A stretch of DNA of 60,040 bases from Patescibacteria group bacterium (GTDB lineage: Bacteria > Patescibacteriota > Patescibacteriia > Veblenbacterales > UBA10138). The notes under the pieces were generated by a model, which saw only the letters and a list, made by a program, of their open reading frames with translations, did not search any database and was not told the DNA's origin. Shown here piece after piece: positions 9,072-24,263 of this stretch. Location of the stretch: positions 1-60,040 of the forward strand of contig JBAZOT010000007.1 of the NCBI GenBank assembly GCA_041648575.1. The letters run 5' to 3'. Position numbers and translations under genes: made by a program. Every line of letters starts with the position of its first letter. Within the stretch, counting starts at the first letter, position 1.

Positions 9072-9242
9072 ATGTCTGACTGGACTATTATCTCGATAAT
9101 TGCATTAGTTGTTTCGGCATTAATATTATTACTTGCTTGTAAATTTTCCAAAAAAGACAAGCTTAACATTTTCTTTTCTTATTCTATGATAGCGATAATA
9201 GTTATAAGTCTCTGGTCTTTAATATCCTCACTCTTAAGTTAA
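9072..9242 (+). CDS. Small two-TM membrane protein (56 aa), below the ORF-track size cutoff
   Basis: AAGGTGA SD 5 nt upstream of ATG; MSDWTIISIIALVVSALILLLACKFSKKDKLNIFFSYSMIAIIVISLWSLISSLLS. Confidence 0.5.
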   Translation: MSDWTIISIIALVVSALILLLACKFSKKDKLNIFFSYSMIAIIVISLWSLISSLLS

Positions 9243-9340
9243 AGGCCTTTTGATGACTATTATTTATCCTTTAAAGCCACGATCGATGAACTATATCGAA
9301 ACCGGGCTTTTTTTATTTAATGTTATACTAAATTAGTAAT

Positions 9341-9445
9341 ATGAAATTCATTTTAAAATCTCCTTTTAAACCAACTGGCGACCCCGAACAAGTCCCGCCT
9401 GTGGCGGGACTATACGGGGCGAGACGAGCTATAAAAAACTTATGA
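9341..9445 (+). pseudogene. Remnant copy of the uvrB 5-prime end (14 codons) fused to a GC-rich hairpin insert; 34-codon leader ORF ending in an ATGA overlap with uvrB
   Basis: MKFILKSPFKPTGD (9341-9382) parallels the intact uvrB N-terminus M-SKTR-FILKSSFKPTGD (9442-). The frame then runs through the insert to TGA at 9443-9445. TATACT -10-like box at 9324-9329. Confidence 0.7.
9382..9419. repeat. GC-rich hairpin insert between the two uvrB 5-prime copies
   Basis: CCCCG-AACAA-GTCCCGCC-TGT-GGCGGGAC-TATA-CGGGG; perfect 8-bp inner stem and 5-bp outer stem in AT-rich context. Confidence 0.75.
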
Positions 9446-11454
9446 GCAAAACAAGGTTTATCTTAAAATCATCTTTTAAACCAACTGGGGATCAGCCGCA
9501 GGCTATAACTAAGTTAATTCAAGGATTAAACAAGGATTTTAAACACCAAACTCTCTTGGGTGTAACTGGTTCTGGTAAGACTTTTACTATGGCCAACGTG
9601 ATAGCGCAAATGCAACGGCCGACTTTGATTATTTCTCATAATAAAACTTTAGCTGCTCAACTGGCTTCGGAATTTAGACAATTTTTCCCAGAAAACGCTG
9701 TGCACTATTTTGTTTCTTATTACGACTATTATCAGCCCGAAGCCTATATTCCGCAATCTGACACTTACATAGAAAAGGAAACTAAAATTAACGAGGAAAT
9801 AGATCGTCTGCGCCACGCTTCTACTCAAAGCATTCTTTCGCGCCGCGATACTATTATTGTGGCGTCGGTTTCCTGTATTTATGGGTTAGGTAGCCCAACT
9901 GAATATGACAAAGTAAAAATTTCTTTAAAGCAGAATCAATTGTTTCCCCGTCAAAAATTACTGCGTCAGCTCACTGAACTGCAATATCAGCGTGCTAATT
10001 TTGATTTTAGGCGAGGCACTTTTCGCGTTAGCGGTGAAATAGTTGAAATTTATCCTACTTTTGCCCTGGACCAATTTTACCGCTTGAGATATGACGGCAA
10101 CAAAATTGAAAAAATTACCGAGCACCAAGCTCTAACTTTGGATAAAATAACCGAACACCAAGAAATTAATCTTTACCCTGCCACTCACTATGTAGCTCCC
10201 AGTGATAGATTCCAACAAGCTTTAACACAAATTAAACAGGATTTGGTCAAGGAAGTGGCTAAATTTAAAAAAGTGGGAAAATTATTAGAAGCCGAGCGGC
10301 TACAACAGCGCACTAATTATGATTTGGAAATGATTAAAACTACTGGCTACTGTAATGGCATTGAAAATTACTCACGTTATTTTGACGGCCGCATTCCAGG
10401 CACACCGTCCTATACTTTAATTGATTATTTTCCTAAAGATTGGCTGTTGTTTATTGATGAATCTCATATGACTATTCCCCAGCTTAATGGTATGTATGCC
10501 GGCGACTACTCGCGTAAACGAACTTTAATTGATTTTGGTTTTCGCCTTAAAGCTTCTTTTGATAACCGACCGCTTAAATTCACTGAATTCAGTAAAAAAC
10601 TGAATCAAACCATTTATGTTTCTGCCACACCAACTGATTATGAAAAAAATCTTTCCCAAACTATCGCTGAACAAATTATCAGACCCACTGGATTATTGGA
10701 TCCTACTATTGAAATAAAACCAACTAAAAATCAAATCGACCATTTGGTAGAAGCGATTAAACAAACAACCAAGAAAAAACAACGAGTGTTAGTTACCACC
10801 CTCACCAAACGCACAGCTGAAGATCTGGCTGATTATTTAAATGATGAAGGAATCAAGGTGCGCTATCTACATTCAGAAATTGACACTTTTGAACGATTAG
10901 AAATTTTGCACGATTTACGCTCTGGTAAATATGATGTAATAGTAGGAATAAACCTGTTGCGCGAAGGATTAGACCTGCCAGAAGTAAGCCTAATTGCCAT
11001 ACTAGACGCTGATAAAGAGGGTTTTTTGCGCTCGGCCCAGGCTTTAATCCAAACCATGGGCCGGGCAGCCAGGCACGCCCAGGGCCATATTATTATGTAT
11101 GCTGATAAAATCACGCGCTCAATGAAACAAGCAATTAGCGAAACCAGCAGACGACGGGTTAAACAGCAAAAATATAACCAAGAACATGGCATTACGCCCC
11201 AATCTATCACTAAAAAACTCAAAGATGATAAATTGGCCGGTGGCAGGCAACTAGCCGAAGTGGTGCCGATTTTTAAAGAACTGAAACTAGATAAGCTACC
11301 TAAAGAAGAAATTGCTTATTTAATTAAAGATTTAACTAATCAAATGGAATTGGCAGCACAAAACCTGGAATACGAAAAAGCCGCCGCCCTGCGCGACCAA
11401 ATTAGTGAGATTAAAAAATTAATCAATAAAAAAAGAGTCACCAGAAGATTATAG
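9442..11454 (+). CDS. uvrB: Excinuclease ABC subunit B
   Basis: 670 aa; FKPTGDQPQAI, GVTGSGKTFT Walker A, C-terminal UVR motif LEYEKAAALRDQI. Confidence 0.97.
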   Translation: MSKTRFILKSSFKPTGDQPQAITKLIQGLNKDFKHQTLLGVTGSGKTFTMANVIAQMQRPTLIISHNKTLAAQLASEFRQFFPENAVHYFVSYYDYYQPEAYIPQSDTYIEKETKINEEIDRLRHASTQSILSRRDTIIVASVSCIYGLGSPTEYDKVKISLKQNQLFPRQKLLRQLTELQYQRANFDFRRGTFRVSGEIVEIYPTFALDQFYRLRYDGNKIEKITEHQALTLDKITEHQEINLYPATHYVAPSDRFQQALTQIKQDLVKEVAKFKKVGKLLEAERLQQRTNYDLEMIKTTGYCNGIENYSRYFDGRIPGTPSYTLIDYFPKDWLLFIDESHMTIPQLNGMYAGDYSRKRTLIDFGFRLKASFDNRPLKFTEFSKKLNQTIYVSATPTDYEKNLSQTIAEQIIRPTGLLDPTIEIKPTKNQIDHLVEAIKQTTKKKQRVLVTTLTKRTAEDLADYLNDEGIKVRYLHSEIDTFERLEILHDLRSGKYDVIVGINLLREGLDLPEVSLIAILDADKEGFLRSAQALIQTMGRAARHAQGHIIMYADKITRSMKQAISETSRRRVKQQKYNQEHGITPQSITKKLKDDKLAGGRQLAEVVPIFKELKLDKLPKEEIAYLIKDLTNQMELAAQNLEYEKAAALRDQISEIKKLINKKRVTRRL

Positions 11455-11491
11455 TGACTCCGTTTGGTAATTGGTAAATTGTTGTTCTGAA

Positions 11492-12154
11492 CTAAATTAA
11501 GGCATCTTTTAGCCGCTTTAAACCAGCGCTAATTTGACGAGTTAAAGCTTCATGCGGTTGATCAATCCAGGGCACTCGCCCAGTTGATTCTTCTTCTGGA
11601 ATAACATCACCGACATATTCGGCATAAAAGTTAGAGCATTTTTTATGCCATAATACCATGGTCCTTATCTCAAACTCATAACCGTACCAATCTCGTAGCA
11701 ATTGTTCTGCTTTATGTAAGGTATCGCCGCTATCATCTAAGTCATCAATAACCAGCACGCGATGCCAAGGCCAGGGTTTTTTTTCCTTTTTCCTCTTAGA
11801 GCGGCGATCAATAAAGGCAATACCCTCAGCAAAAAATGTTCTATTGGAGCGCTTTTCGGCAAGCACTTTCCCGGTCCGGCGGTAACTCTGCGCCATCCAA
11901 ACGCCATAGCGAATTCCGAGAATGCGGGCAATAATAGCCCCAAACAGACCACCGGTGGCCACACAGATTATGATATCTGGCCGATAATGTGAAATCATCA
12001 ATAAGTGAATTAATTTGAGTATCAGTTTGAGATATTGATTAAAGGTAACATGAATAATGGGCTGCCGCTTTTTGTTAATCTCCAGTTGGTATCCACGCCA
12101 ACGTCGAAATTTGATTGCGGGCTTTTGAATGTGCCCTTTTGTTTTCTTTTTCAT
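11492..12154 (-). CDS. Phosphoribosyltransferase-family protein
   Basis: PRPP-binding loop RVLVIDDLDDSGDTL; 220 aa with a basic N-terminal extension. Confidence 0.6.
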   Translation of the reverse strand: MKKKTKGHIQKPAIKFRRWRGYQLEINKKRQPIIHVTFNQYLKLILKLIHLLMISHYRPDIIICVATGGLFGAIIARILGIRYGVWMAQSYRRTGKVLAEKRSNRTFFAEGIAFIDRRSKRKKEKKPWPWHRVLVIDDLDDSGDTLHKAEQLLRDWYGYEFEIRTMVLWHKKCSNFYAEYVGDVIPEEESTGRVPWIDQPHEALTRQISAGLKRLKDALI

Positions 12155-12221
12155 AACTGTATCCTTAATTATGTTGTCAAAGAATGATTTTAATTAAACT
12201 TACCTTACGCCATTAATATTT

Positions 12222-12644
12222 ATGCGTCAAGTGTATAACAAAGTTCTAGTTTTCGGGGTTTTTGATCTATTGCACCCAGGTCATAACTATTTTTTAAAAC
12301 AAGCTAAAAAATATGGCCAAAGATTGATAGTAGTGGTAGCTAGAGATAAAACCACCAAACACTGTAAACGCCATTACCCAATTCAAAACCAGCAAATACG
12401 CCTTAAGCAAATTAAATCATTGCCCTTTGTTTGGCAGGCACTATTAGGTAATAAAGAAATAAATCATAATTATCAAATGGTTAAAAAAATTAAACCTGAT
12501 GTTATTTGCTTAGGTTATGATCAAGATGGAGAGATTAATAAAATTAAACAAGATATGAAACGTCGTCGTCTGACCCTTCATCTAATCCGCCTTAAAGCTT
12601 ATTATCCTAAAAAATACAAAAGCCATATATTAAGACGAAAATAA
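12222..12644 (+). CDS. Cytidylyl/adenylyltransferase-family protein (TagD/RibL-like)
   Basis: KVLVFGVFDLLHPGHNYFLKQAKKYG...LIVVVARD; HxGH nucleotidyltransferase signature. Confidence 0.6.
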   Translation: MRQVYNKVLVFGVFDLLHPGHNYFLKQAKKYGQRLIVVVARDKTTKHCKRHYPIQNQQIRLKQIKSLPFVWQALLGNKEINHNYQMVKKIKPDVICLGYDQDGEINKIKQDMKRRRLTLHLIRLKAYYPKKYKSHILRRK

Positions 12645-12699
12645 GCGAGCTTGCTAAAAAAATATATAGATGCTAAGATGCTTTTACTAATAATTAATC

Positions 12700-12730
12700 T
12701 AGGATTTAGAAATTAGAATTTAGGATTTAA
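12700..12730 (+). repeat. Heptad-phased stop-codon array (TAG x4, TAA x1 at exact 7-nt spacing) just upstream of rpsT
   Basis: TAGGATT TAGAAAT TAGAATT TAGGATT TAA; stops begin at 12700, 12707, 12714, 12721, 12728. Confidence 0.8.
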
Positions 12731-14310: not shown

Positions 14311-14907
14311 TTATTTAACTTTAAACTGTTTTATTATCCGTGTCACTTGCCAATTCTTATTTACTTGACAAATCGCTATAGTATCCGCTTTAAATGATAA
14401 TCTAATATTCTGTAAAAATTTACTTACCAAACCAACGCACTTTGAATCAAATTTACCAATAGTCAAATGCGGTTTATAAACATAAGGACTATTACTGACG
14501 CCATATTTTTTACGATTCTCTTTTTCTTTCCTGGTTAGATTACGGTGACTCCATGGCGGCATCATTCCCGTACGTAAGTTAGCACAATTTTTAAATATAG
14601 CAGTTCTAAATTTTTTTAATAAACCATAACCCATTAAAGGAAAAACGCTCCAACTTTCCTCACTTTCATGACAACCATTAACTCTTAATTGACACGTAGA
14701 ATATGAAACAGCTAATTTTTTTACTATTTTATACAACGTGGATATCCGCGTAGCGCTAGTATTTATATGAAAAAGAGAACAATGAGAAAACATTTTTTTA
14801 TTATCAACCAAACACGATGCTTTACAAATACGATTTGCTTCTAAAGCTAACCTTCCCAATTTCTTCCGTAACTTCGCCGGCGGTAAAATTACAATATCTA
14901 ATAACAT
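14311..14907 (-). CDS. 2H-phosphoesterase superfamily protein (LigT/2'-5' RNA ligase-like)
   Basis: Two H-x-[ST]-x motifs about 105 aa apart: HCSL (FSHCSLFHI) and HLTI (KPHLTIGKF). Confidence 0.45.
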   Translation of the reverse strand: MLLDIVILPPAKLRKKLGRLALEANRICKASCLVDNKKMFSHCSLFHINTSATRISTLYKIVKKLAVSYSTCQLRVNGCHESEESWSVFPLMGYGLLKKFRTAIFKNCANLRTGMMPPWSHRNLTRKEKENRKKYGVSNSPYVYKPHLTIGKFDSKCVGLVSKFLQNIRLSFKADTIAICQVNKNWQVTRIIKQFKVK

Positions 14908-14937: not shown

Positions 14938-15672
14938 CTACTTAGATAAAGTTTTCCAAACTAACTCAAACTGAGCGCGTTCAATTTTGGCTAATTCTTC
15001 ACTTTCAATTAATACAGCAATTAAATCTTTATAAAAAGTAAATAAAGCAACTTTGTTACCAAAAATCATTTTCATACCATGAAAATCATAAGCTGCCGAA
15101 ATTAAACGAACTTGGCGTAACTCTTTAGACCCTAATTGTTTTCGTTCCCTAGCTTTAGCTGAATCGCGGGTAATAACACGTGCTGGAATTTTAAGTGCCA
15201 CCCGACGTTTAACAAATTCAGGAAAATAATCGTCTAACACAATAAAAAGATCTTCAGCTGAACTAAAGGTCAAAAATTCACTTTTGCTTTCCAAAACCTC
15301 CTCTAAAATTACTTTCATTCCTTCTTTACCATAAAATAACCGTACCATTGGACGATCTTGCGGACTTTGGTAAAGCGCTTGAAGTTGCGGCAGGGCTGAT
15401 TCTAATAATCTAGCTCTATCTTGAGCCAGTTTAAACAACTTTTCAGGGTTTTCTGCTGTATAATGCTTAACGCCCTTTTGCGCAAAAGTAGAAACCAATC
15501 CTTTTTTAGCTAACTCATCTAAAATATCATATACACTAGCCCGCGGCAGTTCGCTTTTACGGGCTATTTTTTGAACGGCTGATGAGCCCAGCTCTAAAAG
15601 ACCAAGATAAACTTGGGCTTCTTTTGGGCTTAAACCAAAGGTTTTTAGGATATTTTGTAAGTCTTGAATCAT
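14938..15672 (-). CDS. TrmB-family transcriptional regulator (copy 1)
   Basis: FGLSPKEAQVYLGLLELGSSAVQKIARKSELPRASVYDILDELAKKGLVS winged-helix N-domain. ATG at 15672 (MIQDLQNILK) preferred over the track TTG at 15693, because the duplicated remnant at 17077 starts at the equivalent ATG. Confidence 0.85.
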   Translation of the reverse strand: MIQDLQNILKTFGLSPKEAQVYLGLLELGSSAVQKIARKSELPRASVYDILDELAKKGLVSTFAQKGVKHYTAENPEKLFKLAQDRARLLESALPQLQALYQSPQDRPMVRLFYGKEGMKVILEEVLESKSEFLTFSSAEDLFIVLDDYFPEFVKRRVALKIPARVITRDSAKARERKQLGSKELRQVRLISAAYDFHGMKMIFGNKVALFTFYKDLIAVLIESEELAKIERAQFELVWKTLSK

Positions 15673-15707
15673 ATTTGCCGGTAATTTCGACAACTAATTA
15701 TATCTCA

Positions 15708-15736
15708 AATTTAGCTTATTTAAGGCATATTGTCAA
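15708..15736 (-). promoter_or_regulatory. Sigma70-like promoter of the TrmB-family gene
   Basis: Minus strand TTGACA (15736-15731), 17-nt spacer, TAAATT (15713-15708); back to back with the + strand promoter. Confidence 0.55.
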
Positions 15737-15762
15737 TACTACTTATCAACCTGCCGCCAATC

Positions 15763-15791
15763 TTGACAAGTTTACCTTTTACCGATATACT
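15763..15791 (+). promoter_or_regulatory. Near-consensus sigma70 promoter of cassette ORF A
   Basis: TTGACA (15763-15768), 17-nt spacer containing the direct repeat TTTACC-T-TTTACC, TATACT (15786-15791). Confidence 0.65.
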
Positions 15792-15849
15792 GATCTGTTA
15801 AAAACAAAATAACTAAATAACGAACATTAACAATTTAAGGAGAAATGAA

Positions 15850-16455
15850 ATGAAAACAATGAATATTCAAGTACCAAAAATTCCTATTGGTAGTTTAGTC
15901 TACCTAGACTGCTCAATAATAATCCCCGCACAAAAGTCTAAAAAGATTCAGCGCTTGGATTCGGAACGGGTGATAAGGTTTTGTAAATACGGAGTTAAAA
16001 CTCGCCCAACTTCTTATGACACAGGATTGGTTGGCAGCGCCGGTACAATGGAAGACCAAGTTGAAGATGAAATAATACCTACCAAACTAGATTTCAACTA
16101 CCATCCGGTAGCGGAAGGTGAGGAAATCTCATGCGACGAGTTAATAGAACGGGCCCAACAAGTGGGCGCAATTGGTAGTTTGCTATTCGGTAAGCTGGCT
16201 ATTGATTTACAAGATACAGAACTAAATATATTACCAATACCAGTTGAAATTGAATCAGATCACCAAATTGCCTTGCCTAACACAATACTTGGACATGAAG
16301 TTGCTGGCGTTATTGGCAAAATTTCAGATCACTTTGTGGAAGTGAAAATGCCTTATCTAAACTGGAATCAGTTTGCGAAGAAGTGGGAACTAAAATTTGC
16401 TTCGCCCGATTCTCACGTTTGGAAAAGCAGAGTTTGCTTGATACTTATGAAATAA
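15850..16455 (+). CDS. Hypothetical protein, cassette ORF A (201 aa), no recognisable family
   Basis: AAGGAG SD 7 nt upstream of ATG; soluble, acidic middle region; no TM segment. Confidence 0.7.
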   Translation: MKTMNIQVPKIPIGSLVYLDCSIIIPAQKSKKIQRLDSERVIRFCKYGVKTRPTSYDTGLVGSAGTMEDQVEDEIIPTKLDFNYHPVAEGEEISCDELIERAQQVGAIGSLLFGKLAIDLQDTELNILPIPVEIESDHQIALPNTILGHEVAGVIGKISDHFVEVKMPYLNWNQFAKKWELKFASPDSHVWKSRVCLILMK

Positions 16456-16506
16456 GTTGTGAGGAAAGAACAAAACCTAATCGAAAGTGCAATGTAAAAT
16501 CAAACC

Positions 16507-16539
16507 AGACGGGTGGAATAAAAAATGTTTCACCCGTCT
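16507..16539 (+). promoter_or_regulatory. Conserved intercistronic hairpin (copy 1)
   Basis: AGACGGGTG-GAATAAAAAATGTTT-CACCCGTCT; perfect 9-bp stem, not followed by a U-run; repeated at 18131..18163. Confidence 0.7.
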
Positions 16540-16574
16540 ATTAATCTGAAGTACTAAACAAAAGGAGAAATAGA

Positions 16575-16685
16575 ATGAAAAATGAGAATAAGCCTGTTGT
16601 ACTTTTAATAGTCTGTGCTTTGTGTATAGTAGCCATATTTATTATCTGGTTTATTACAATCGGCATGCCTTATGCATTGAACTAG
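16575..16685 (+). CDS. 36-aa hydrophobic single-TM peptide (copy 1)
   Basis: AAAGGAG SD; MKNENKPVVLLIVCALCIVAIFIIWFITIGMPYALN; 30 of 36 residues identical to the peptide at 18558..18668. Confidence 0.6.
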   Translation: MKNENKPVVLLIVCALCIVAIFIIWFITIGMPYALN

Positions 16686-16775
16686 CTATTCCAAAAAACA
16701 GATGTCTTGATATTATATGGCTAGGTGGGTAATGATATCCATTAACAACAACTAAAAAAATAAAACATTAATCAA

Positions 16776-16808
16776 AACCGGGATTGAAAATTCAGTCTCG
16801 GTTTTTTA
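16776..16808 (+). terminator. Rho-independent terminator of cassette 1
   Basis: AACCGGGATTGA-AAAT-TCAGTCTCGGTT-TTTTATTTT. Confidence 0.75.
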
Positions 16809-16840
16809 TTTTCTATGGCTAAATTACTTTGCATTAATTT

Positions 16841-16901
16841 GTATCAATGTGTTAACCCAGAACTAGAGCTTCGCACAGTACTGGGCATGGTACATTAATA
16901 C
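16841..16901. repeat. Approx. 60-nt inverted-repeat structure (copy 1)
   Basis: GTATCAATGT-GTTAA-CCCAGAACT...AGTACTGGG-CATGGT-ACATTAATAC; same architecture at 18902..18961. Confidence 0.65.
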
Positions 16902-16945
16902 AAACACATAATAATCTCTGGATTAAAATTGATACTATAGATTGC

Positions 16946-16983
16946 AGATTGCTTTGCCCTGCGAACACGAAACTCGCAATAAC
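16946..16983. repeat. Short GC-rich palindromic element (ATTGC...GCAAT type)
   Basis: AGATTGCTTTGCCCTGCGAACACGAAACTCGCAATAAC; its ends recur at 18995-19010 and 19137-19150, flanking extra nested copies. Confidence 0.55.
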
Positions 16984-16999
16984 AAATATCAATCAAAAA

Positions 17000-17077
17000 C
17001 TAATAACTAAGGTAAATTACGGCTTCTTTTGGGCTTAAACCAAAGGTTTTTAGGGTATTTTGTAAATCTTGAGTCAT
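17000..17077 (-). pseudogene. Truncated duplicate of the TrmB-family gene 5-prime end (25 codons, then stop)
   Basis: Minus strand MTQDLQNTLKTFGLSPKEA-VIYLSY* versus intact MIQDLQNILKTFGLSPKEAQVYLG; homology breaks at 17020/17021. Confidence 0.8.
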
Positions 17078-17167
17078 ATATGCCGGTAATTTCGACAACT
17101 AATCATATCTCAAATCTAGCTTATTTAAAGCATATTGTCAATACTACTTATCAACCTGCCGGAAGTA

Positions 17168-17196
17168 TTGACAAATTTGCCTATACGACGTATAGT
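17168..17196 (+). promoter_or_regulatory. Duplicated sigma70 promoter driving cassette ORF B, with a different spacer
   Basis: TTGACA (17168-17173), 17-nt spacer, TATAGT (17191-17196). The perfect palindrome CTATACG-A-CGTATAG (17181-17195) overlaps the -10. Confidence 0.65.
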
Positions 17197-17254
17197 GACT
17201 TGTTTAAAACAAAATAACTAAATAATGAACATTAACAATTAAAGGAGAAATAAA

Positions 17255-18098
17255 ATGAAAAGCAAAAGTATAAGTGATCATTTGCTGTTTAAGGTCAGCA
17301 AACCCAGTTTTGATGGCACGTTTAGAATTTTAAGCTGGTCTGACGCTATTGACGTCTCTAGAAAAGCATCAACGTCGCACGAATATTGTCTTCAGAGTTT
17401 TGGAAAGGAATTTCGTTTTGTCGTTTATGACAGAGAACCAATAGGACCCTTGTCACTACCATCATTAGATGGACACGAAACAATTCCTAACGCGCTCCAA
17501 TTCGACAAATCGGTTAGCTTAAAACAAATAACAAATTCTTCGTGGGATGATCTAGTGGCTATAGCTTTAAAAGCCATGAATCAAAGACGTAAAGATTATA
17601 ATAAGTCTCTAAACAATCTCTTTAGTGTAAAAAAGATTAACCTTGGTCGTCTTATAGATGGTTGCACTAAAGCTGTATTACAACCCGAAGATGATCAAAG
17701 AAAAATTCATAAATTCTATGCAAGAAAATTCTATGCAAGAGGTTGTTATATAAAACATGATGCAACTGAAAGTTGTCATCTGAATCATAATATAAAAACC
17801 AGTATTTCAGTTACTTCATTACCGAAAGGAAAAAAGGGAAGAAAGTCGTCCTTTTATTGGAGTAGAGATTGGTGGCGAACTTTACGTAGATTATAAAATT
17901 TCAACCTTTCCTACAGAAATCGGGGGTAAAGTATTTTTAAGAAATCGGTATACTACTGATGAAAAAATAACCGTTGACTTAGAAATGCTAATTGAACCCG
18001 TTGATTTAGAACCAATTTCTATGCTTACGGTGGGTAATCTTTGGCAAGAATCAGTGCTTGAACCAGAGCCGCTTTTTAAAGAGCCGATAATCAAATAG
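17255..18098 (+). pseudogene. Cassette ORF B: 213-aa hypothetical ORF (17255..17896) that apparently continues in the +1 frame (17796..18098); frameshifted gene, or a sequencing or slippage error at an A6 run
   Basis: The frame-0 stretch ...RPFIGVEIGGELYVDYKISTFPTEIGGKVFLRNRYTTDEKITVDLEMLIEPVDLEPISMLTVGNLWQESVLEPEPLFKEPIIK* looks coding but has no start codon until an ATG about 58 codons in (DLEMLIEP). The tail of the annotated frame (KGKKGRKSSFYWSRDWWRTLRRL) looks out of frame. A6 run at 17830-17835. Confidence 0.5.
17711..17740 (+). repeat. Perfect 15-nt in-frame tandem duplication inside ORF B
   Basis: aaattctatgcaaga x2, giving KFYAR-KFYAR. Confidence 0.9.
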
Positions 18099-18130
18099 TG
18101 AGATAAAAAGCGTATCAACAAAAATTAACC

Positions 18131-18163
18131 AGACGGGTGGAATAAAAAATATTTCACCCGTCT
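18131..18163 (+). promoter_or_regulatory. Conserved intercistronic hairpin (copy 2)
   Basis: AGACGGGTG-GAATAAAAAATATTT-CACCCGTCT; flanks AACC...ATTAATCTGAA are also conserved with copy 1. Confidence 0.7.
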
Positions 18164-18201
18164 ATTAATCTGAAATATCAAACAATAAAAGGAGAAATAA
18201 A

Positions 18202-18540
18202 ATGAAACAAAAATCTTTAATCCTCAAGAGTGGTTACCTTATACTGCTTACTCTCGTCCATCTCTATTTACTGGGATTGGCACTGAACTTATCATGGAAC
18301 TGGTTTATTGTTCCGGTATTAGGAATCAAAATGCTTGGAACGTTTCAAGCAATTGGTGTAATAATACTGTTAAAAATATTAAAGTATCAACCTAGCGCCT
18401 GGATCTTTAAAAAAGAAGCTGATTTTTGGTCATCACTAGATAACCATCTAAAGCAACGTCGCATAGAGTTAAGCTGGCGTGCGGCCTACACTCTTAGCTT
18501 CTTAAGCATAAGTTATTGTGTTCACCAATTAATAATTTAA
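18202..18540 (+). CDS. Hypothetical 3-4 TM membrane protein (112 aa), present only in cassette 2
   Basis: AAAGGAG SD; LILKSGYLILLTLVHLYLLGLALNLSWNWFIVPVLGIKMLGTFQAIGVIILLKIL. Confidence 0.6.
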   Translation: MKQKSLILKSGYLILLTLVHLYLLGLALNLSWNWFIVPVLGIKMLGTFQAIGVIILLKILKYQPSAWIFKKEADFWSSLDNHLKQRRIELSWRAAYTLSFLSISYCVHQLII

Positions 18541-18557
18541 GAAAGGAGATTAATAAA

Positions 18558-18668
18558 ATGAAAAATAAGAATAAGCCCGTTGTACTTTTAATAGTTTGTG
18601 CTTTGGGGATAGCAGCCATATTTATTATCTGGTTTATTACAATCGGCCTGCCTTATGCATCGAAGTAG
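18558..18668 (+). CDS. 36-aa hydrophobic single-TM peptide (copy 2)
   Basis: AAAGGAG SD; MKNKNKPVVLLIVCALGIAAIFIIWFITIGLPYASK. Confidence 0.6.
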   Translation: MKNKNKPVVLLIVCALGIAAIFIIWFITIGLPYASK

Positions 18669-18757
18669 CCATCCAAAAAAACAGATGCCCGATATTATAT
18701 GGCTAGGTGGGTAATAATATCCATTAACAACAACTAAAAAAATAAAACATCAATCAA

Positions 18758-18789
18758 AACCGAGATTGAAAATTCAGTCTCGGTTTTTT
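18758..18789 (+). terminator. Rho-independent terminator of cassette 2
   Basis: AACCGAGATTGA-AAAT-TCAGTCTCGGTT-TTTTA. Confidence 0.75.
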
Positions 18790-18790
18790 A

Positions 18791-18878
18791 TCCACCTTCG
18801 CCCCGATATTTATCGTGGCTTCGGCGGATTCCGCCAAAAAATGAAGGATACCCACGGGTGTAAGTCTGTAGTGGCTTC
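18791..18878. repeat. GC-rich palindromic insertion absent from cassette 1
   Basis: GCCCCGATA-TT-TATCGTGGC, GGCGG-ATT-CCGCC, GAAGCCAC twice on the minus strand; interrupts the otherwise colinear copy-1 / copy-2 alignment. Confidence 0.55.
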
Positions 18879-18901
18879 ATTTTCTATGACTAAATTACTT
18901 T

Positions 18902-18961
18902 GTATTAATGTGTTAACCCAGAACTAGACTTTAGTCAGTACTGGGCACGGTACATTAATAC
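18902..18961. repeat. Approx. 60-nt inverted-repeat structure (copy 2)
   Basis: GTATTAATGT-GTTAA-CCCAGAACT...AGTACTGGG-CACGGT-ACATTAATAC (perfect 10-bp outer arms). Confidence 0.7.
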
Positions 18962-18989
18962 AAACACATAATAATCTCTAGATTAACAT

Positions 18990-19150
18990 AGCTGATTGCT
19001 TCGCCCAGTCAAACAGGACTCGCCCGCCTACCGCAGGCAGACAATGACAACTAAACGTCACTGCGAATGAGCGTAACGAATGAAGCAGTCTAGAAGATCG
19101 CCACGTCGCTGCGCTCCTCGCGATGACAGGAGAAAAACACTCGCAATAAC
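18990..19150. repeat. Nested cluster of short GC-rich palindromic elements
   Basis: The minus strand reads GTTATTGCGAG..., GTCATCGCGAGGAGCGCAGCGACGTGGCGATC, ...CATTCGCAGTGAC..., GTCATTGTCTGCCTGCGGTAGGCGGGCGAG..., GGGCGAAGCAATC. About 135 nt are inserted relative to the single unit at 16946..16983. Confidence 0.6.
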
Positions 19151-19177
19151 AAAAACTAAGAACCAGGAATAAGGTAC

Positions 19178-19208
19178 TAGGAACTAGGAACTAGAAACTA
19201 AATACTAA
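19178..19208 (+). repeat. Second heptad-phased stop-codon array (TAG x3, TAA x2 at 7-nt spacing)
   Basis: TAGGAAC TAGGAAC TAGAAAC TAAATAC TAA; stops begin at 19178, 19185, 19192, 19199, 19206. Confidence 0.8.
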
Positions 19209-19216
19209 CTTTCTCA

Positions 19217-19258
19217 ATCCCAGTACCAATCCCGATTTATCGGGAGATGGTACGGGAT
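19217..19258. other. Long interrupted hairpin downstream of polA
   Basis: ATCCC-A-GTACC-AA-TCCCGA-TTTA-TCGGGA-GAT-GGTAC-GGGAT; no U-run on the polA strand, so terminator status is uncertain. Confidence 0.5.
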
Positions 19259-19293
19259 GTTCGCCCCTACGAGCATACGATGAATACCAGGGG

Positions 19294-22041
19294 CTATCTA
19301 AGAGGCTCCATCTCCCCCCAATTTTTCCCTTGTTTTAATTCCACCATAATCGGCACAATTAATTTAATAGCGCTTTCCATTTCTTGCTTGACCATAATAG
19401 CCACTTTTTTAACATCCCCCGCTGGCACTTCAAAAACCAATTCATCATGAACCTGAAGTATCATTTTAGAATCCTGTGACGTTACTGGCAACTTGGTAGC
19501 AACTTTAATCATAGCTAACTTCATTAAATCTGCTGCTGTGCCTTGAGTTGGTAAATTTACAGCCATACGCTCGGCTGCGGCCCGCACTTGCCCGACACCC
19601 GAGTTTACTTCGGGTAACCGGCGTTTGCGACCAAATAAAGTTGCTACATAACCATATTTTCTAGCTTGCTCTTTAGTATCCTCAATCCAACCAGCCACTT
19701 GAGGGAAAGCATTAAAATAACGATCAATAAAATTTCTGGCCTCCTCACGAGAAATTCCAGTGCGCTCTGCCAAACCCCAAGGCCCCATACCATAAAGCAC
19801 TCCAAAATTAACCTCTTTAGCACTACGACGCTGATCTCTGGTAATTTTTTCTGGCTCCACACCTAAAATATATGCCGCAGTGGAAGTGTGAATATCATCA
19901 CCGCGTTTGAATATATTAATCATATTTTTATCCTGCGCCAAATGCGCTACTATTCTAAGTTCAATTTGGGAATAATCAACAGACAGCAAAACATTTCCTG
20001 GTTCTGCAATGAATGCTCGACGCAAAATCGTACCCCAATCGCCCTTGATAGGAATATTTTGCAAATTAGGATTAGAAGATGATAAACGCCCTGTGGCGGT
20101 AACGGTTTGATTAAAACTAGTGTGCACTCTCCCGGTTTTCGGATTAATTAATTCGGGCAAGGCCTCCACATAAGTAGACTGCAATTTAGATAATTCGCGA
20201 AAATCTAATAAATGATTAATCACTGGGTGTAAACTTTTCATTTTTTCCAATTCAGAAGCTGCGGTAGAAAAACCAGTTTTTATTTTTCTAATTCCGTCGG
20301 GTGAAATTTTTAACGTTTCAAATAAAACTTCTTTTAGTTGCAAGGGCGAGGCAATATTGAATTTTTTACCAGCTAATTTATGTATTTTTTCTTCCAGCCT
20401 GATTATTTCCCCAGCCAATTTTTTTTGCATAATGCCCAAATACTTATTATCAATTTTAAATCCAGCGCGTTCTATTTGCGCTAAAATCGGCACCAACGGC
20501 ATTTCTATTTCATAAAAAAGTTTATCCAAATTATTTTGCTTAAGTTCCGACTCTAGTTTATTCTTAAGCCGCAAAGTAAAATCAGCATCTTCAGCTGAAT
20601 ACCATGATACTTTATCAATTGGCACTTCGGTCATGTTTTTTTGATCTTTACCCTTAGGACCAAGTAAATCCTCTATTGGCTGCATACGATAACCAAACTC
20701 TTGAAATACTAGTGAATCTAAATCTAAATTTCTTTCCCCACCCGCGCGCAATAAATAGGCAGCTATCATGGTATCAAAAGTTATGGCTTCAAGTTTGATT
20801 CCGTCATTCCATAATGCTTCAATATCAAACTTAATGTTATGACCACCTTTAGCTAAATCGTTACTGGTCAGTAAATCGCAAAACTTTTTAGCAGCAGTGG
20901 ATTTGCCTGCCAACAACTTAACTGGAACAAAATATGCTTCGCCGGGTTTAGCCGCAACACTCACACCTAGTAAATCTGATTGCCATGGATCTAGGCCAGA
21001 AGTTTCCGTATCAATTACTATAAATTTTTCCACAGCTAATTTTTTTACCAACGACATTAATTTAACCTCGCTATCAACAAGCTGATAATCCTGCTGCCCA
21101 CTTTTAGTTTGTTTAAGTTTAGCTACTGGCAAATCTAAATTACCCTGCAATTGTGGAATTTTAGGTAATAACGATTTAAATTCAAATTTTTGAAATAAAT
21201 CAATTAATTTATCCTCATCAAATTTACCTAAAATGCAATCTACCAATTTAAATGGTAGATTAATATTCCTAACAATAGTAACTAATTTTTGAGAAAGATA
21301 TGCTTCTGATTTAGATTTTAAAAGCAACTCGCGAATTTTCGGTCTAACTTTCTCAATTTTCTTGCCATTTTTTTCTAATTCTTTATATAAATTATCTAAG
21401 TTGTTAAAGATTTTAATTAATTCCGCAGCAGTTTTTTCACCAATTCCCTTAACACCAGGGATATTATCTGACGGGTCGCCCCGAAGCGCTTTATAATCTA
21501 TCATTTGCTCGGGTTTCAATTCATATCTCCGTTGCACTGCTTGGCTGTCATAAGTTATAGTGTCTGCTAAACCGTGTTTTAAAGTGTAAACTTTGGTGCG
21601 CTCATCAACTAATTGAAGAGTATCCAAGTCTCCGGTTACAATAATATTTTCTAGTTCTGGATAATCATCTGATATTTTTTTAGTTAGCGTACCAATCACA
21701 TCATCAGCTTCAAAACCCGGCGCTTCATAAATTGGTAAATGAAAAGCAGCTATGATTTGCTTGATTAATGGAATTTGGTCATAAAACTCTTGCGGCTGTT
21801 TTTGCCGCTGCGCTTTATAGGCTTTAAATTCTTGATGTCGAAAAGTTGTTTCAGCGCGATCAAAAGTCACTGCCACATATCTGGGTTTTAATTCTTTAAT
21901 TACACGCAAAAAAATAGTAGTAAATCCGTAAACAGCGTTTACTATTAACCCGTCTTTAGTAGCGAGCAGTGGCAAGGCATGCCAAGCTCTGTGTACTAAG
22001 GCATTGCCGTCAAAAATAACAAATTTCTCTAACTTGGGCAT
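19294..22041 (-). CDS. polA: DNA polymerase I (5'-3' exonuclease, 3'-5' exonuclease and polymerase domains)
   Basis: 915 aa; FDGNALVHRA, GIGEKTA, DYSQIELR, QVHDELVFE motifs. Confidence 0.97.
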   Translation of the reverse strand: MPKLEKFVIFDGNALVHRAWHALPLLATKDGLIVNAVYGFTTIFLRVIKELKPRYVAVTFDRAETTFRHQEFKAYKAQRQKQPQEFYDQIPLIKQIIAAFHLPIYEAPGFEADDVIGTLTKKISDDYPELENIIVTGDLDTLQLVDERTKVYTLKHGLADTITYDSQAVQRRYELKPEQMIDYKALRGDPSDNIPGVKGIGEKTAAELIKIFNNLDNLYKELEKNGKKIEKVRPKIRELLLKSKSEAYLSQKLVTIVRNINLPFKLVDCILGKFDEDKLIDLFQKFEFKSLLPKIPQLQGNLDLPVAKLKQTKSGQQDYQLVDSEVKLMSLVKKLAVEKFIVIDTETSGLDPWQSDLLGVSVAAKPGEAYFVPVKLLAGKSTAAKKFCDLLTSNDLAKGGHNIKFDIEALWNDGIKLEAITFDTMIAAYLLRAGGERNLDLDSLVFQEFGYRMQPIEDLLGPKGKDQKNMTEVPIDKVSWYSAEDADFTLRLKNKLESELKQNNLDKLFYEIEMPLVPILAQIERAGFKIDNKYLGIMQKKLAGEIIRLEEKIHKLAGKKFNIASPLQLKEVLFETLKISPDGIRKIKTGFSTAASELEKMKSLHPVINHLLDFRELSKLQSTYVEALPELINPKTGRVHTSFNQTVTATGRLSSSNPNLQNIPIKGDWGTILRRAFIAEPGNVLLSVDYSQIELRIVAHLAQDKNMINIFKRGDDIHTSTAAYILGVEPEKITRDQRRSAKEVNFGVLYGMGPWGLAERTGISREEARNFIDRYFNAFPQVAGWIEDTKEQARKYGYVATLFGRKRRLPEVNSGVGQVRAAAERMAVNLPTQGTAADLMKLAMIKVATKLPVTSQDSKMILQVHDELVFEVPAGDVKKVAIMVKQEMESAIKLIVPIMVELKQGKNWGEMEPLR

Positions 22042-22114: not shown

Positions 22115-23341
22115 TCAGTCTTCTATCGTACCTCCGCCCGTAAGCAAAAAAACTATGGTTTTATCTTGGCCATTTAACTCCTTAGCTTTTTCTATGGCGC
22201 CTTTTATCGCGTAACATGATTCAGGCGACGGTCTAATTCCTTCTACTTTTTCGAAATACAATTGAAGTCGGTCTACTTCCTCATTTGAGTATGCCACTGC
22301 CTTCACTATATTTTTATTAACAAGAAGGGATAAGAGTGGGTTCTTCCCGTGGTAATTTAAGCCGCTGGCACCAAGTTTCTTCGGCACAAAATTGACACCT
22401 AGTGTATACATCTTGGCACATGGCATGCGTCCAATTAAGTCAGGGTTTTCATATTTGTATTCACCCTTTGTAAAGCTAGGAACGCTTGTGGACTCAATCG
22501 CGATAAAGTCGGTGCTATTTCTATCAGCTTTTATAAATGGGAAGACAAAACCAGAAAAACTACTCCCACCCCCCACAACACCAACCATAGCATTAGGGGT
22601 AATATTTTGCTGTGCCAGTTGTTGTTTTAGCTCCATACCTATTACCGTATTATGTAATGCTGAGTAGGCAGTCAAACAACCAACTGACAATTTATTTTTC
22701 TGGTCACGACGAACGTGTTCCAACGCGATGCTAATACTGGCCGCAATTGTTTCTTGTTTAGTTGTAATTGGTACGACTTTTGCCCCATACTTTTTCATTA
22801 GGCCCACCTTCTTTTTTTTCAGGTCATAGTTTTTCTTTTCCATGTAAATTATGGCCTGAAGCCCAAATTCCTTGCAGGCAACAGCCATGCCCATGCCCCA
22901 ATTTCCAGGTCCCGTGTCAGCAATAAATTCCCGCACTCCCTCCTCAGCGGCATAATATGCTTGAACATATGATGAATTGAGCTTATAGCTTCCAATTTCA
23001 TTTTGATCCTCCCTCTTGAAGTATATTTTTACTCGTTCCAATCCAAGATCATTCTCTAATCCCGCTGCTCTTACTAACGGAGTGGGACGATATTTTTCAT
23101 ATAGCTTTAAAATTTTATTCGGTATAGCTATAAGATTCTCGGTTTTGTATGTTCCAAAATTAAGTTCTTGTTTTGCGAGTTCCCGCGGAATTATCTCGGC
23201 AAGTTTTTCCCATTGCATTACATCCCTATTATCGGGATCAAGAAAAGGCGGAATTTCAAAACCGAGTTCCCTTTCGATAAATGGCACGATGTTATACCAA
23301 AATTTAGGAACCCCACTATTGGTGTAATAATCTAGTCCCAT
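22115..23341 (-). CDS. TrpB-like PLP-dependent enzyme (stand-alone tryptophan synthase beta-like, TrpB2 type)
   Basis: 408 aa; NEIGSYKLNSS (PLP-lysine context), GVVGGGSSFSG glycine loop; no other trp genes in the window. Confidence 0.75.
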   Translation of the reverse strand: MGLDYYTNSGVPKFWYNIVPFIERELGFEIPPFLDPDNRDVMQWEKLAEIIPRELAKQELNFGTYKTENLIAIPNKILKLYEKYRPTPLVRAAGLENDLGLERVKIYFKREDQNEIGSYKLNSSYVQAYYAAEEGVREFIADTGPGNWGMGMAVACKEFGLQAIIYMEKKNYDLKKKKVGLMKKYGAKVVPITTKQETIAASISIALEHVRRDQKNKLSVGCLTAYSALHNTVIGMELKQQLAQQNITPNAMVGVVGGGSSFSGFVFPFIKADRNSTDFIAIESTSVPSFTKGEYKYENPDLIGRMPCAKMYTLGVNFVPKKLGASGLNYHGKNPLLSLLVNKNIVKAVAYSNEEVDRLQLYFEKVEGIRPSPESCYAIKGAIEKAKELNGQDKTIVFLLTGGGTIED

Positions 23342-23347
23342 ATATTT

Positions 23348-23407
23348 TTATGCCCGGTGCACTAAAGCATTGCCGTCAAAAATAACAAATTTTTCTTTGG
23401 GTGGCAT
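23348..23407 (-). pseudogene. Remnant copy of the polA 5-prime end (19 codons + stop), 6 nt upstream of the TrpB-like ATG
   Basis: Minus strand MPPKEKFVIFDGNALVHRA* versus intact polA MPKLEKFVIFDGNALVHRAW. Most nucleotide differences are synonymous (CCC/CCA, GAG/GAA, GCC/GCT, GTA/GTG, AGA/CGG, GCT/GCA). Confidence 0.8.
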
Positions 23408-23834: not shown

Positions 23835-23874
23835 GGTTTTGTCATGCCTACGGCAGATCTCCCGAAGGGAGACC
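23835..23874. repeat. Direct repeat Y (approx. 40 nt) bounding the GIY-YIG / tRNA-Cys insertion
   Basis: ggttttgtcatgcctacggcagatctcccgaagggagacc; about 36 of 41 positions match repeat X at 24214..24255. Confidence 0.8.
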
Positions 23875-23894: not shown

Positions 23895-23969
23895 TGGAGG
23901 CCACGGGCGGAATCGAACCGCCGTATAGGAGTTTTGCAGACTCCCGCCTTACCACTTGGCTACGTGGCC
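23895..23969 (-). tRNA. tRNA-Cys (anticodon GCA), CCA encoded
   Basis: Minus strand GGCCACG TA GCC AAGTGGTAA GGC G GGAGT CTGCAAA ACTCC TATAC GGCGG TTCGATT CCGCC CGTGGCC T CCA. Confidence 0.9.
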
Positions 23970-24263
23970 ATACTTCTGTTTAAGAATTTCTTTTTGTTGA
24001 CCTGTTTTATAAAACTTCTCTCCCCTAATCGCGTCTTTTCTGCTTTCATATTCCTGTATTTTCAGTAATTTCCATGGTCTATATCCTTTAGTGGATTTTA
24101 CTTTACCTTGATTGTGCTGACGAAAACGAACTTGGACATCAGCTGAGCTACCTACATAAATATCACCATTTAATAAACTAACTAAAATGTAAACGTAATA
24201 CTTAATAAATGATGGTTTTGTCGTCCCTACGGGAGATCTCCCGAAGGGGAGACGGACTCCCAC
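23949..24263 (-). CDS. GIY-YIG nuclease-family protein (small URI-domain type); start codon uncertain
   Basis: YYVYILVSLLNGDIYVGSSADVQVRFRQHNQG...PWKLLKIQEYESRKDAIRGEKFYK. No in-frame ATG before the domain; the only upstream start is GTG at 24263, inside the tRNA-like 5-prime half. The last 7 codons overlap tRNA-Cys (23949-23969). Confidence 0.7.
   Translation of the reverse strand: MGVRLPFGRSPVGTTKPSFIKYYVYILVSLLNGDIYVGSSADVQVRFRQHNQGKVKSTKGYRPWKLLKIQEYESRKDAIRGEKFYKTGQQKEILKQKYGHVAKW
24214..24255. repeat. Direct repeat X (approx. 42 nt) bounding the GIY-YIG / tRNA-Cys insertion
   Basis: ggttttgtcgtccctacgggagatctcccgaaggggagacgg; contains the perfect palindrome GGGAGATCTCCC and alternating GGGAG/CTCCC segments. 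Confidence 0.8.

Follow-up and report, generated by a model that had tools for sequence, protein, structure and literature searches.

How do two unrelated open reading frames (ORFs) come to stand one behind the other between the same set of control elements? The question is raised by a locus at the 3' end of polA in a Patescibacteria genome, within a stretch of 60,040 nucleotides (GCA_041648575.1, contig JBAZOT010000007.1, positions 1 to 60,040) that is called the window here. The contig comes from a short-read metagenome assembly (megahit k141; ENA ERZ27249422 k141_649421). The locus is an islet of 4.36 kb (14938-19293) composed of a TrmB-family regulator gene and two cassettes, or units, each with its own cargo ORF. 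A sequence-only reading of the window had noticed conserved flanks with swapped cargo, and the observation holds well beyond this genome: four other loci carry the same frame with other ORFs inside it. Cargo has been replaced within a constant frame, the islet is an insertion at polA, and its second unit is in decay. We consider it probable that this old islet is a regulated expression slot, where homologous recombination within the conserved frame replaces one cargo gene by another and units stack. The window units are labelled W1 (unit 1) and W2 (unit 2), and L numbers denote loci in other genomes.

Two tandem units with a common frame

Four repeat blocks, A to D, occur in the same order in both units at 83-92% identity, and self-BLAST finds no further copy of them in the 60 kb. 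The features of the islet are as follows.

14938-15672, minus strand: TrmB-family winged helix-turn-helix regulator, 244 aa from ATG (251 aa from TTG at 15693 in the ORF list)
15601-15856 and 17006-17261: block A, 87.5% identity over 256 nt, 32 mismatches
15673-15849, both strands: unit 1 control region, with back-to-back promoters
15763-15791, plus strand: unit 1 promoter TTGACA-17-TATACT
15736-15708, minus strand: unit 1 promoter TTGACA-17-TAAATT
15837-15855, plus strand: 19-nt Shine-Dalgarno (SD)-ATG block AAGGAGAAATnAAATGAAA, with further copies at 16562, 17242 and 18189
15850-16455, plus strand: cargo 1 (ORF1), 201 aa, in a family with variable proteins of diversity-generating retroelements (DGRs)
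16503-16580 and 18127-18207: block B (hairpin), 90% identity
16507-16539, plus strand: hairpin B, copy 1, 33 nt, perfect 14-bp stem, 5-nt loop, no U-tract on the plus strand
16561-16809 and 18542-18791: block C (peptide gene and terminator), 92% identity
16575-16685, plus strand: ORF for a 36-aa single-pass hydrophobic peptide, copy 1
16774-16805, plus strand: intrinsic terminator 1, 14-bp stem and T-run, called by the terminator scan
16805-16929 and 18876-18989: block D (inverted repeat), 83% identity
16839-16903: 30-bp palindrome (TTGTATCAATGTGTTAAC...GTACATTAATACAA), split by a palindromic insert of about 33 nt
16930-17005: unit 1 tail, resembling the sequence after polA, and unique junction to unit 2
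16971-16998 and 19138-19165: family D5 repeat, first copy in the unit 1 tail
17006-17077, minus strand: truncated TrmB gene, first 24 codons, 93% identical to the 5' end of L078 trmB and 89% to unit 1
17078-17254: unit 2 control region, plus-strand promoter at 17168-17196, minus-strand promoter at 17141-17113
17255-18098, plus strand: cargo 2 (ORF2), as read 17255-17896 and 213 aa, 280 aa after a +1 correction within 17796-17896
18131-18163, plus strand: hairpin B, copy 2
18202-18540, plus strand: 112-aa membrane protein, about three hydrophobic segments by inspection, without topology prediction
18558-18668, plus strand: 36-aa peptide ORF, copy 2
18756-18787, plus strand: intrinsic terminator 2, a near-identical copy (inverted repeat I12 and T-run) that the scan does not call
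18792-18875: 84-nt GC-rich palindromic insert with no counterpart in unit 1
18900-18963: palindrome, copy 2, with a central palindromic insert of about 33 nt
18990-19293: GC-rich palindromes resembling repetitive extragenic palindromic (REP) elements, and tail to the polA stop codon, 78-96% identical to L075 8298-8406

Block A takes in the start of the minus-strand TrmB gene (24 codons), two back-to-back promoters and the 19-nt SD-ATG block. Nine of its 32 mismatches fall within the 17-nt spacer of the plus-strand promoter, and identity outside that spacer is 90.4%. The repeat described by the sequence-only reading is real, but the figure of about 95% that it gave for the same part is too high; likewise, the antisense TrmB start is indeed part of the repeat, but it spans 24 codons (17077 to 17006) rather than about 19. 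The elements that reading described were otherwise found at or near the places where it had put them, and the two cargo ORFs have, as it said, no similarity to one another (BLASTP E=16).

Hairpin B is conserved in four copies, those of both window units, L075 and L078, with a variable loop in L075. Copy 1 folds at about -21 kcal/mol (z -4.8 against shuffled sequence) and copy 2 has z -6.2. A C-to-U change in the L078 stem keeps a G-U pair only on the plus-strand RNA, and on the minus strand a T-rich run follows the hairpin in all four copies. We suggest that hairpin B is an mRNA stabiliser or partial terminator that separates cargo from membrane genes; the T-rich run may give it a bidirectional role. 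Terminator 1 is conserved in L075, L076, L078 and L079. The 30-bp palindrome (z -4.7 for copy 2) is perfect and uninterrupted in L075 (TTGTATCAATGTGTTAACACATTGATACAA) and L079 (TTGTATTAACGTGTTAACACGTTAATACAA), which differ from each other by mirrored double substitutions, and is putatively a protein-binding site. An Rfam scan of the locus gave no match, attC included. A compositional anomaly of the islet was ruled out, its GC content of 0.35-0.39 being the same as that of the window (0.37).

The frame in related genomes

A first genome scan with TrmB as the query gave no match. A polA scan of GTDB genomes gave the relatives with an empty site. The scan puts the window among Patescibacteria, with the best matches in Candidatus Veblenbacteria metagenome-assembled genome L061 (79%) and in L005 (78%). 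Loci that contain TrmB were located through the contigs of TrmB orthologs with 62-88% identity, and have the following gene orders.

L075: polA, 55-aa peptide, 110-aa membrane protein, 185-aa cargo (all divergent from TrmB), TrmB, LigT-like gene, holA
L076 and L077: polA, 260-aa cargo, TrmB, holA
L078: TrmB, 211-aa cargo, 182-aa gene
L079: PhD/ParE, 327-aa protein, 129-aa protein, TrmB, holA

Segments of the frame are 82-96% identical among W1, W2, L075 and L078. The relatives have in common, at 84-96% DNA identity, the control region, hairpin B, the terminator, the palindrome and the GC-rich palindromes, and the ORFs between these elements cannot be aligned. Five unrelated types of cargo occupy seven units from six genomes. 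ORF1-type cargo occurs in W1 and L078, ORF2-type cargo in W2, L076 and L079, and proteins of 185, 129 and 182 aa are found elsewhere; both types of the window thus recur in the same frame in other genomes. Partners vary too. ORF1-type genes are accompanied by the 36-aa peptide gene in the window or by the 182-aa gene in L078, while ORF2-type genes have no partner in L076, follow a 129-aa gene in L079 and share their unit with the 112-aa and 36-aa genes in the window. W2 and L075 are homologous up to codon 4 of the cargo gene (ATGAAAAGCAA), beyond which the proteins are unrelated, so that the frame donates the start codon. In L079, a PhD/YefM-ParE toxin-antitoxin pair (125-659) lies directly beside the TrmB cassette locus.

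Insertion at the 3' end of polA

L061 has holA directly after polA, whereas in L005 a 200-nt spacer and a LigT-like gene come between polA and holA. Both lack TrmB and a cassette. TrmB is thus not a core gene here, and belongs with the cassettes to an accessory islet. The flanks of the islet in the window are these.

14311-14907, minus strand: 198-aa 2H/LigT-like gene on the holA side, 70% aa identity to the L075 ortholog, weak match to a 2',5'-ligase NCBIfam model
19294-22041, minus strand: polA, 915 aa

Degenerate copies of the polA C-terminus, comprising its last 13-35 codons, are found just downstream of the TrmB stop codon in three relatives, and on the opposite side of the islet the functional polA gene is complete.

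L075: VMVKQEMEQALALSVPIIMDIKVEKNWGETEE, about 35 codons
L078/L082: MVKSEMEPVVLSL, 13 codons, degenerate, with a stop codon in the L078 circle described below
L079: SLPIKLRCGKNWGDGED, about 17 codons

In L075, about 265 nt separate the remnant from the LigT-like gene, an arrangement like that of polA and LigT at the empty site of L005. Remnant and spacing together indicate that the islet entered polA about 35 codons before the stop, bringing a replacement 3' end. The window has no polA remnant, with just 30 nt between TrmB and the LigT-like gene, and comparison with the other loci suggests that the window and L076 have lost it. A replication terminus or dif context was considered for the site and rejected, as GC skew merely tracks gene orientation.

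The regulator and its control region

The regulator matches the Pfam TrmB model (PF01978, 2.9e-17, above the gathering score) through an N-terminal winged helix-turn-helix, and NCBIfam also assigns it to the TrmB family. A profile of the regulator family matches the PDB structures of TrmB (3qph, 1.4e-9) and TrmBL2 (5bpd, 2e-6). No match to the C-terminal sugar-binding effector domain (Regulator_TrmB) was found in the protein. Its 244 aa and the match to TrmBL2 residues 12-207 fit a short, TrmBL2-like form, which is how we would classify it. TrmB orthologs, at 62-88% identity, always lie beside a divergent cargo gene; distant homologs (about 50%) have periplasmic binding proteins or ABC transporters as their partners.

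The two promoters are near consensus, with 11/12 and 10/12 matches. Across an alignment of six loci, both -35 boxes and the -10 box of the plus-strand promoter are invariant and the 17-nt spacer is variable, as expected of real promoters. The SD-ATG block AAGGAGAAATnAAATGAAA has four matches, all at this locus, where 0.14 would be expected by chance. Candidate TrmB operators are CAATACTACTTATCAAC, which lies between the two -35 boxes, and the TATCAA...TTGATA of the 30-bp palindrome. Published motifs of the TrmB family are TACT-N3-AGTA and TATCAC-N5-GTGATA (PMC4158304); the TATCAA half-sites of the palindrome and CAATACTACTTATCAAC resemble these and are offered as leads to possible binding sites.

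A second TrmB-family gene is present in the window, in the 46362-47739 region on the minus strand. Its product has 253 aa, is 30% identical to the first and adjoins a divergent 152-aa orphan ORF (47281-47739) with a terminator, so the layout of a regulator with a divergent orphan recurs in this genome.

Cargo 1 belongs to a family with DGR variable proteins

ORF1 is 47% identical at the amino acid level to the 211-aa cargo protein L078_211, which occupies the same frame. A phmmer search against 1.8 billion representatives finds this protein with E 3e-43. It also finds 12 remote homologs, 145-213 aa long and with E values of 7e-8 to 6e-4, which are 34-43% identical over residues ~26-155. A profile built from the 12 remote homologs alone scores ORF1 at 79 bits and leaves the other cargo proteins, the ORF2 family included, unmatched. 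A word-indexed search had returned ORF1 only, missing known relatives, and the idea that ORF1 is an orphan was rejected after the phmmer and locus comparisons.

Two of the four ORF1 homologs with readable context lie directly upstream of an RVT_1 reverse transcriptase (RT). Both belong to complete DGRs, in which a template repeat (TR) accompanies the variable repeat (VR) of the target gene.

L127, 6001-8526: complete DGR, 202-aa target, TR downstream, RVT_1 RT
L128, 6001-8529: complete DGR, 202-aa target, TR downstream, RVT_1 RT, bAvd

The 3' 130-137 nt of each target gene are repeated about 470-495 nt downstream, and mismatches within the VR fall at TR adenines in 13 of 13 cases in L127 and 22 of 24 in L128. 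These two targets are bona fide DGR variable proteins. The target family related to ORF1 has no Pfam domain, and the ORF1 model has no Foldseek match in the PDB; the ORF1 relatives may represent an undescribed variable-protein scaffold.

The C-terminal region of ORF1 is among the better conserved stretches relative to its ortholog. As the window shows no RT, Avd or TR and the gene is not followed by a GC-rich initiation of mutagenic homing (IMH) element, we judge ORF1 to be a non-diversified relative of DGR targets or, possibly, a remote target. Hairpin B was considered as a DGR target-recognition hairpin and rejected, as neither L127 nor L128 has a similar hairpin and hairpin B follows unrelated cargo. 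The sequence-only reading had proposed structure prediction for the cargo. An AlphaFold model of ORF1, built on a 14-sequence alignment, has a predicted local distance difference test score (pLDDT) of 75 and a predicted TM-score (pTM) of 0.75, and Foldseek finds no match to it in the PDB or BFVD, structures with C-type lectin folds (CLec) included. Such an outcome fits the report that DGR targets encoded by bacteria of the Candidate Phyla Radiation (CPR) are typically without recognisable domains (Roux et al. 2021, PMC8144416).

Cargo 2 and the small membrane proteins

The sequence-only reading was right in giving ORF2 a frameshifted tail. Over 17796-18098 the +1 frame stays open, and the corrected product of 280 aa aligns end to end with L076_260 and L079_327, sharing with both the motif PI(P/S)ML..LW.E.V..P.P...EP, which lies after the frameshift. 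The frameshifted sequence is identical in the Logan contig. ORF2 is a frameshifted pseudogene of a small second family, which has no match in Pfam, PADLOC, PHROG or NCBIfam; a word-indexed search with the family alignment returned only L079_327 and the window fragment. The earlier statement that no cargo protein could be placed in a known family thus no longer applies to ORF1, and ORF2 falls into a small family of its own. ORF2 also contains an in-frame 15-nt tandem duplication at 17709-17738 (aaattctatgcaaga twice, encoding KFYARKFYAR).

Across all cargo and membrane proteins, searches of Pfam, PADLOC, PHROGs and NCBIfam gave no match except for weak ones of the 112-aa protein to phage membrane-protein PHROGs (best 1.7e-5). 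PADLOC in particular reports no defence match for any of them, and gives matches at the helix-turn-helix level for TrmB only. No signal peptide was seen in the cargo proteins by inspection, and we find no evidence for the surface variation that had been suggested.

The 112-aa protein is 88% identical to L075_110. In L075, the slot of the 36-aa peptide is taken by an unrelated 55-aa single-pass peptide. Unit 1 appears to have lost its 112-aa gene when the sequence from one SD-ATG block to the next was deleted. A minus-strand TGGATA-18-TATAAT site is conserved a short way downstream of each 36-aa ORF (16741-16712 and 18723-18694); it could drive an antisense RNA, although promoter-like matches overall are at chance frequency.

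Arrays and a circular contig

The L078 contig (ENA ERZ27247322 k141_646740) has 2,793 nt, of which the first and the last 141 are identical. These ends fall within the 182-aa gene, at its middle, and close the contig into a 2,652-bp cycle. The cycle contains TrmB, the 211-aa cargo gene, the 182-aa gene, hairpin B, the terminator, the palindrome, the GC-rich palindromes, the tail and the polA remnant. A JGI sample contributed L082, which matches L078 at 99.8% identity over TrmB and a further 140 nt and then runs into the LigT-like gene, so that the L078-type unit is chromosomal as well. The cycle represents an extrachromosomal circle, or else identical units that are amplified or lie in an array. 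In a distinct setting, L080 (GCA_964348225.1, CPR-like, 1-12729) has five tandem pairs of a TrmB homolog (about 50%) and a Peripla_BP_6 binding protein, divergent or convergent.

The sequence-only reading had reported no recombinase in the window, and none was found in the parts searched. Tblastn across the window gives no match to a Xer/integrase catalytic domain, and gene tables with Pfam searches of ORFs over 3.1-51.9 kb contain no Phage_integrase. Pfam searches of 20 large ORFs at 29.4-51.9 kb and precomputed gene tables for 5.8-28.5 kb show no RT, Avd or tyrosine recombinase, ORFs at 52.1-60.0 kb and short ORFs lying outside the scan. The searched parts and the unit itself also lack a relaxase or Rep, and no integrase occurs in the unit of any relative. 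Searches of IMG/VR, INPHARED phages and PLSDB small plasmids return no relatives beyond distant helix-turn-helix regulators, and a viral or plasmid origin was rejected on these grounds.

Origin of the locus

According to the explanation that we favour, an ancestor of this Patescibacteria lineage acquired the islet at the 3' end of its polA gene. A gene for a TrmBL2-like repressor would lie opposite a short operon, and back-to-back sigma-70 promoters would drive both. The conserved frame would supply the promoter, the 5' untranslated region and a fixed SD-ATG-AAA block, and hence the start codon; hairpin B would close the variable segment, followed by optional genes for small membrane proteins, the intrinsic terminator and the 30-bp palindrome. 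Between start block and hairpin B, the ORF differs from strain to strain; it would be exchanged when incoming DNA, probably taken up by the cell, undergoes homologous recombination within the conserved frame. Tandem arrays would arise when units recombine with one another, either unequally or by way of a circular unit. Unit 1 is intact, with a relative of DGR-type variable binding proteins and the 36-aa membrane peptide. The pair in the window could be an old array, or could result from recombination with the unit of another lineage, followed by a deletion of about 0.75 kb that removed the second TrmB from codon 25 on and fused the stump to the unit 1 tail at a ctaagg microhomology. We infer that TrmB probably regulates itself and that recombination took this route; the cargo may have a role in strain-specific interactions, with phage or with a host cell.

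Several observations weigh against parts of this explanation. Only six related loci were available, all metagenomic, and recombination is read from mosaic patterns over short segments, in which identity differences over 72-190 nt are statistically weak. Promoter-like matches overall were at chance frequency in the scan, so that the case for the two promoters is their conservation. The link of ORF1 to DGRs holds for two homologs of four, the other two having no RT within reach; tblastn with two DGR RTs and one bAvd finds no RT or Avd in the window or related loci, the 3' end of ORF1 is not repeated as a TR in the 60 kb (the TR/VR pairs of L127 and L128 serving as positive control), and the ORF1 model lacks a fold match. 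A structure model for the ORF2 family, from a two-sequence alignment, has a pLDDT of 29 and no usable fold. The changes that separate the two 36-aa ORFs, 2 synonymous and 7 non-synonymous, suggest that these ORFs may escape selection at the protein level and make their coding status uncertain. Finally, the circular L078 contig could reflect amplification or graph pruning.

Alternative explanations differ mainly in how units move and multiply. Each unit might be a mobile element of about 2.6 kb, circular, and plasmid-like or of the Xer/IMEX type (integrative mobile elements exploiting Xer), that integrates site-specifically at the polA 3' end or the palindrome by means of a recombinase encoded elsewhere, arrays arising by repeated integration. 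The isolated, self-overlapping 2,652-bp contig and the chromosomal copy of its TrmB region in another sample speak for this, as do the polA 3' remnants, which flank the islet as a direct repeat with polA; the order of remnant, tail and palindrome in the circle is that expected for a Campbell-type product, and two copies of the palindrome, with its mirrored covariation, bracket unit 2. Yet no recombinase, relaxase or Rep turned up where we searched, databases of viruses and small plasmids hold no relatives, and only one contig among about 50 loci is circular. Moreover, the polA-like piece in the circle is degenerate, with a stop codon, so that integration through it would truncate polA, and the remnants look old enough for a single ancient insertion to suffice. 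We regard this alternative as unlikely, if worth keeping in mind. A related and more speculative proposal, to which we give somewhat less credence, is an undescribed minimal mobile element of Patescibacteria: a circle of about 2.6 kb, with a regulator, 1-3 cargo genes and the 30-bp palindrome, that would enter the polA 3' end by host recombination, stack, and shuttle strain-specific genes, including DGR-type scaffolds, between lineages. A third possibility concerns the tail of the unit, which could be an addiction or defence module, either with the 36-aa peptide as a type I toxin under an antisense RNA or with the 112-aa and 36-aa proteins as holin-like effectors triggered by a variable sensor. 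The peptide is small, single-pass and preceded by a strong SD; an opposite-strand TATAAT with a weak -35 is conserved just downstream of both peptide ORFs, the minus strand has its T-rich run after hairpin B in all four copies, the 112-aa protein matches phage membrane-protein PHROGs, and a PhD/ParE pair adjoins the L079 locus. Against these stand the negative PADLOC, Pfam, NCBIfam and Rfam results, the chance frequency of promoter-like matches, the L078 stem substitution, which favours a plus-strand hairpin, and the absence of membrane genes from L076, L078 and L079, which makes them optional cargo. Such a module is improbable, and we find no evidence for the toxin/immunity logic that the sequence-only reading had entertained.

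The tandem arrangement itself might have arisen in situ, by duplication of one TrmB-cargo unit followed by divergence, the two cargo ORFs then being a single gene that has drifted apart. The units are indeed head-to-tail and in the same order, and unit 2 is visibly decaying. However, the flanks are 88-93% identical while the cargo shows no similarity whatever, each cargo has homologs of its own in the same frame in other genomes, and the ORF1-family profile misses the ORF2-family proteins. The W1 and W2 frames are in addition no closer to each other than to those of L075 and L078 (82-96%); this equality of divergence within and between genomes makes a recent in-situ duplication unlikely, and recent duplication was rejected on the flank identities. 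We find the duplication account as a whole very improbable. Nor do we give much weight to an assembly artefact, in which two strain alleles of a single-cassette locus were joined in series. Strain variants of the locus clearly exist, the assembly is a short-read one, and in an independent Logan assembly of SRR8449827 both units are present at 100% identity in contigs that break inside the repeats. The junction at 16930-17077, however, where the unit tail is fused to the 24-codon TrmB stump, is unique sequence that would exist in neither allele, which speaks against a chimera; about one position in ten (10%) differs between the copies, which leaves no room for collapse or duplication by the assembler, and arrays or circles are seen independently in L078 and L080. 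An artefact is thus the most improbable of the explanations considered here.

Comparison with known systems

Replacement-type flexible genomic islands, such as O-antigen and capsule loci, are strain-variable loci at one site that are exchanged by homologous recombination in conserved flanks. Our locus resembles them in its fixed position between core genes, its conserved borders around unrelated content and its lack of a dedicated recombinase. Unlike them, it has a slot of a single gene (~0.6-0.9 kb) rather than a gene cluster, borders made of non-coding control elements including the start codon, a regulator of its own, and tandem arrays. Integron arrays share with it the serial cassettes, in which unrelated ORFs are each followed by an inverted-repeat element, and the promoter supplied by the platform. 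The integron-like logic considered by the sequence-only reading is nonetheless not supported: no IntI integrase was found in the parts searched and there is no attI, the 14-bp stem of hairpin B is perfect and has neither the R/L boxes nor the GTTRRRY core that characterise attC, and every unit has its own promoter and, originally, its own regulator.

Some islands and prophages integrate into the 3' end of a protein-coding gene and carry a replacement 3' end, as does e14 in the icd gene of E. coli. The displaced, degenerate last 13-35 polA codons at the far end of the islet in relatives, together with an intact polA, follow the same pattern, but there is no integrase, excisionase or phage gene, a unit measures only about 2.5 kb, and the remnant is deleted in the window. 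With Xer-dependent integrative elements and modules (IMEX, pdif), the locus shares a palindromic site of about 30 bp at the unit end, tandem arrays, a possible circular form and the absence of an element-encoded recombinase; it differs in that the palindrome is perfect instead of an 11-6-11 dif-like site, and in having no Xer gene in the window and no link to the terminus.

CPR/Patescibacteria have tiny genomes, and DGR-diversified proteins are enriched in CPR. ORF1 resembles the DGR targets of uncultivated bacteria as a sequence homolog of small proteins whose genes have VR 3' ends beside an RT and bAvd, and departs from them in having no RT, Avd, TR or GC-rich IMH nearby and in sitting in a TrmB frame. 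The regulator agrees with the short, TrmBL2-like members of its family in its N-terminal winged helix-turn-helix, its length (~245-264 aa), the lack of a detected sugar-binding domain, its divergent placement relative to the target gene and the TACT and TATCA-type motifs of the control region and palindrome (PMC4158304). It is unlike them in its bacterial (CPR) host and in its putative targets, which are orphan genes and not sugar transporters.

The locus would thus be a compact slot with a regulator of its own, where lineages exchange single genes within a constant setting of promoter, start codon, hairpin and terminator; one of its cargo genes is linked to a DGR-diversified protein family. 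To our knowledge, very few mobile elements or plasmids have been described for CPR/Patescibacteria, and strain-specific gene gain in them is largely unexplained; a circular unit, if true, would be a minimal gene-shuttling element. Primers and probes for surveys of strain-level cargo diversity in metagenomes can be taken from the conserved frame, which is also a natural expression cassette in a group without genetic tools.

Neighbouring features

Most window proteins are closest to those of L075 (RuvB 92%, PRT 95%, holA 83%, TrmB 88%). PolA (19294-22041), next to the islet, is discordant, with 65% identity to L075 against 78-79% to L005 and L061; replacement of the whole gene, or mosaic recombination, is likely to have taken place there. 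At the other end of polA, a 19-codon remnant of its 5' end (MPPKEKFVIFDGNALVHRA*) lies at 23348-23407 on the minus strand (compare 21991-22030), upstream of a PALP-enzyme gene (22115-23341) that separates it from the real polA start. L075 has neither the PALP nor the PQ-loop gene at this spot, a sign that insertion or replacement may have happened a second time, here at the other end of polA.

A GC-rich palindromic element (ggtctcccttcgggagatc...ccgtagg...gacaaaacc) occurs in two copies, 90% identical, at 23835-23873 and 24214-24253. The copies flank a tRNA-Cys gene (23895-23969) and a small GIY-YIG-like ORF (23949-24263), and REP-like palindromes similar to them fill 18792-18875 and 18990-19293 in the islet.

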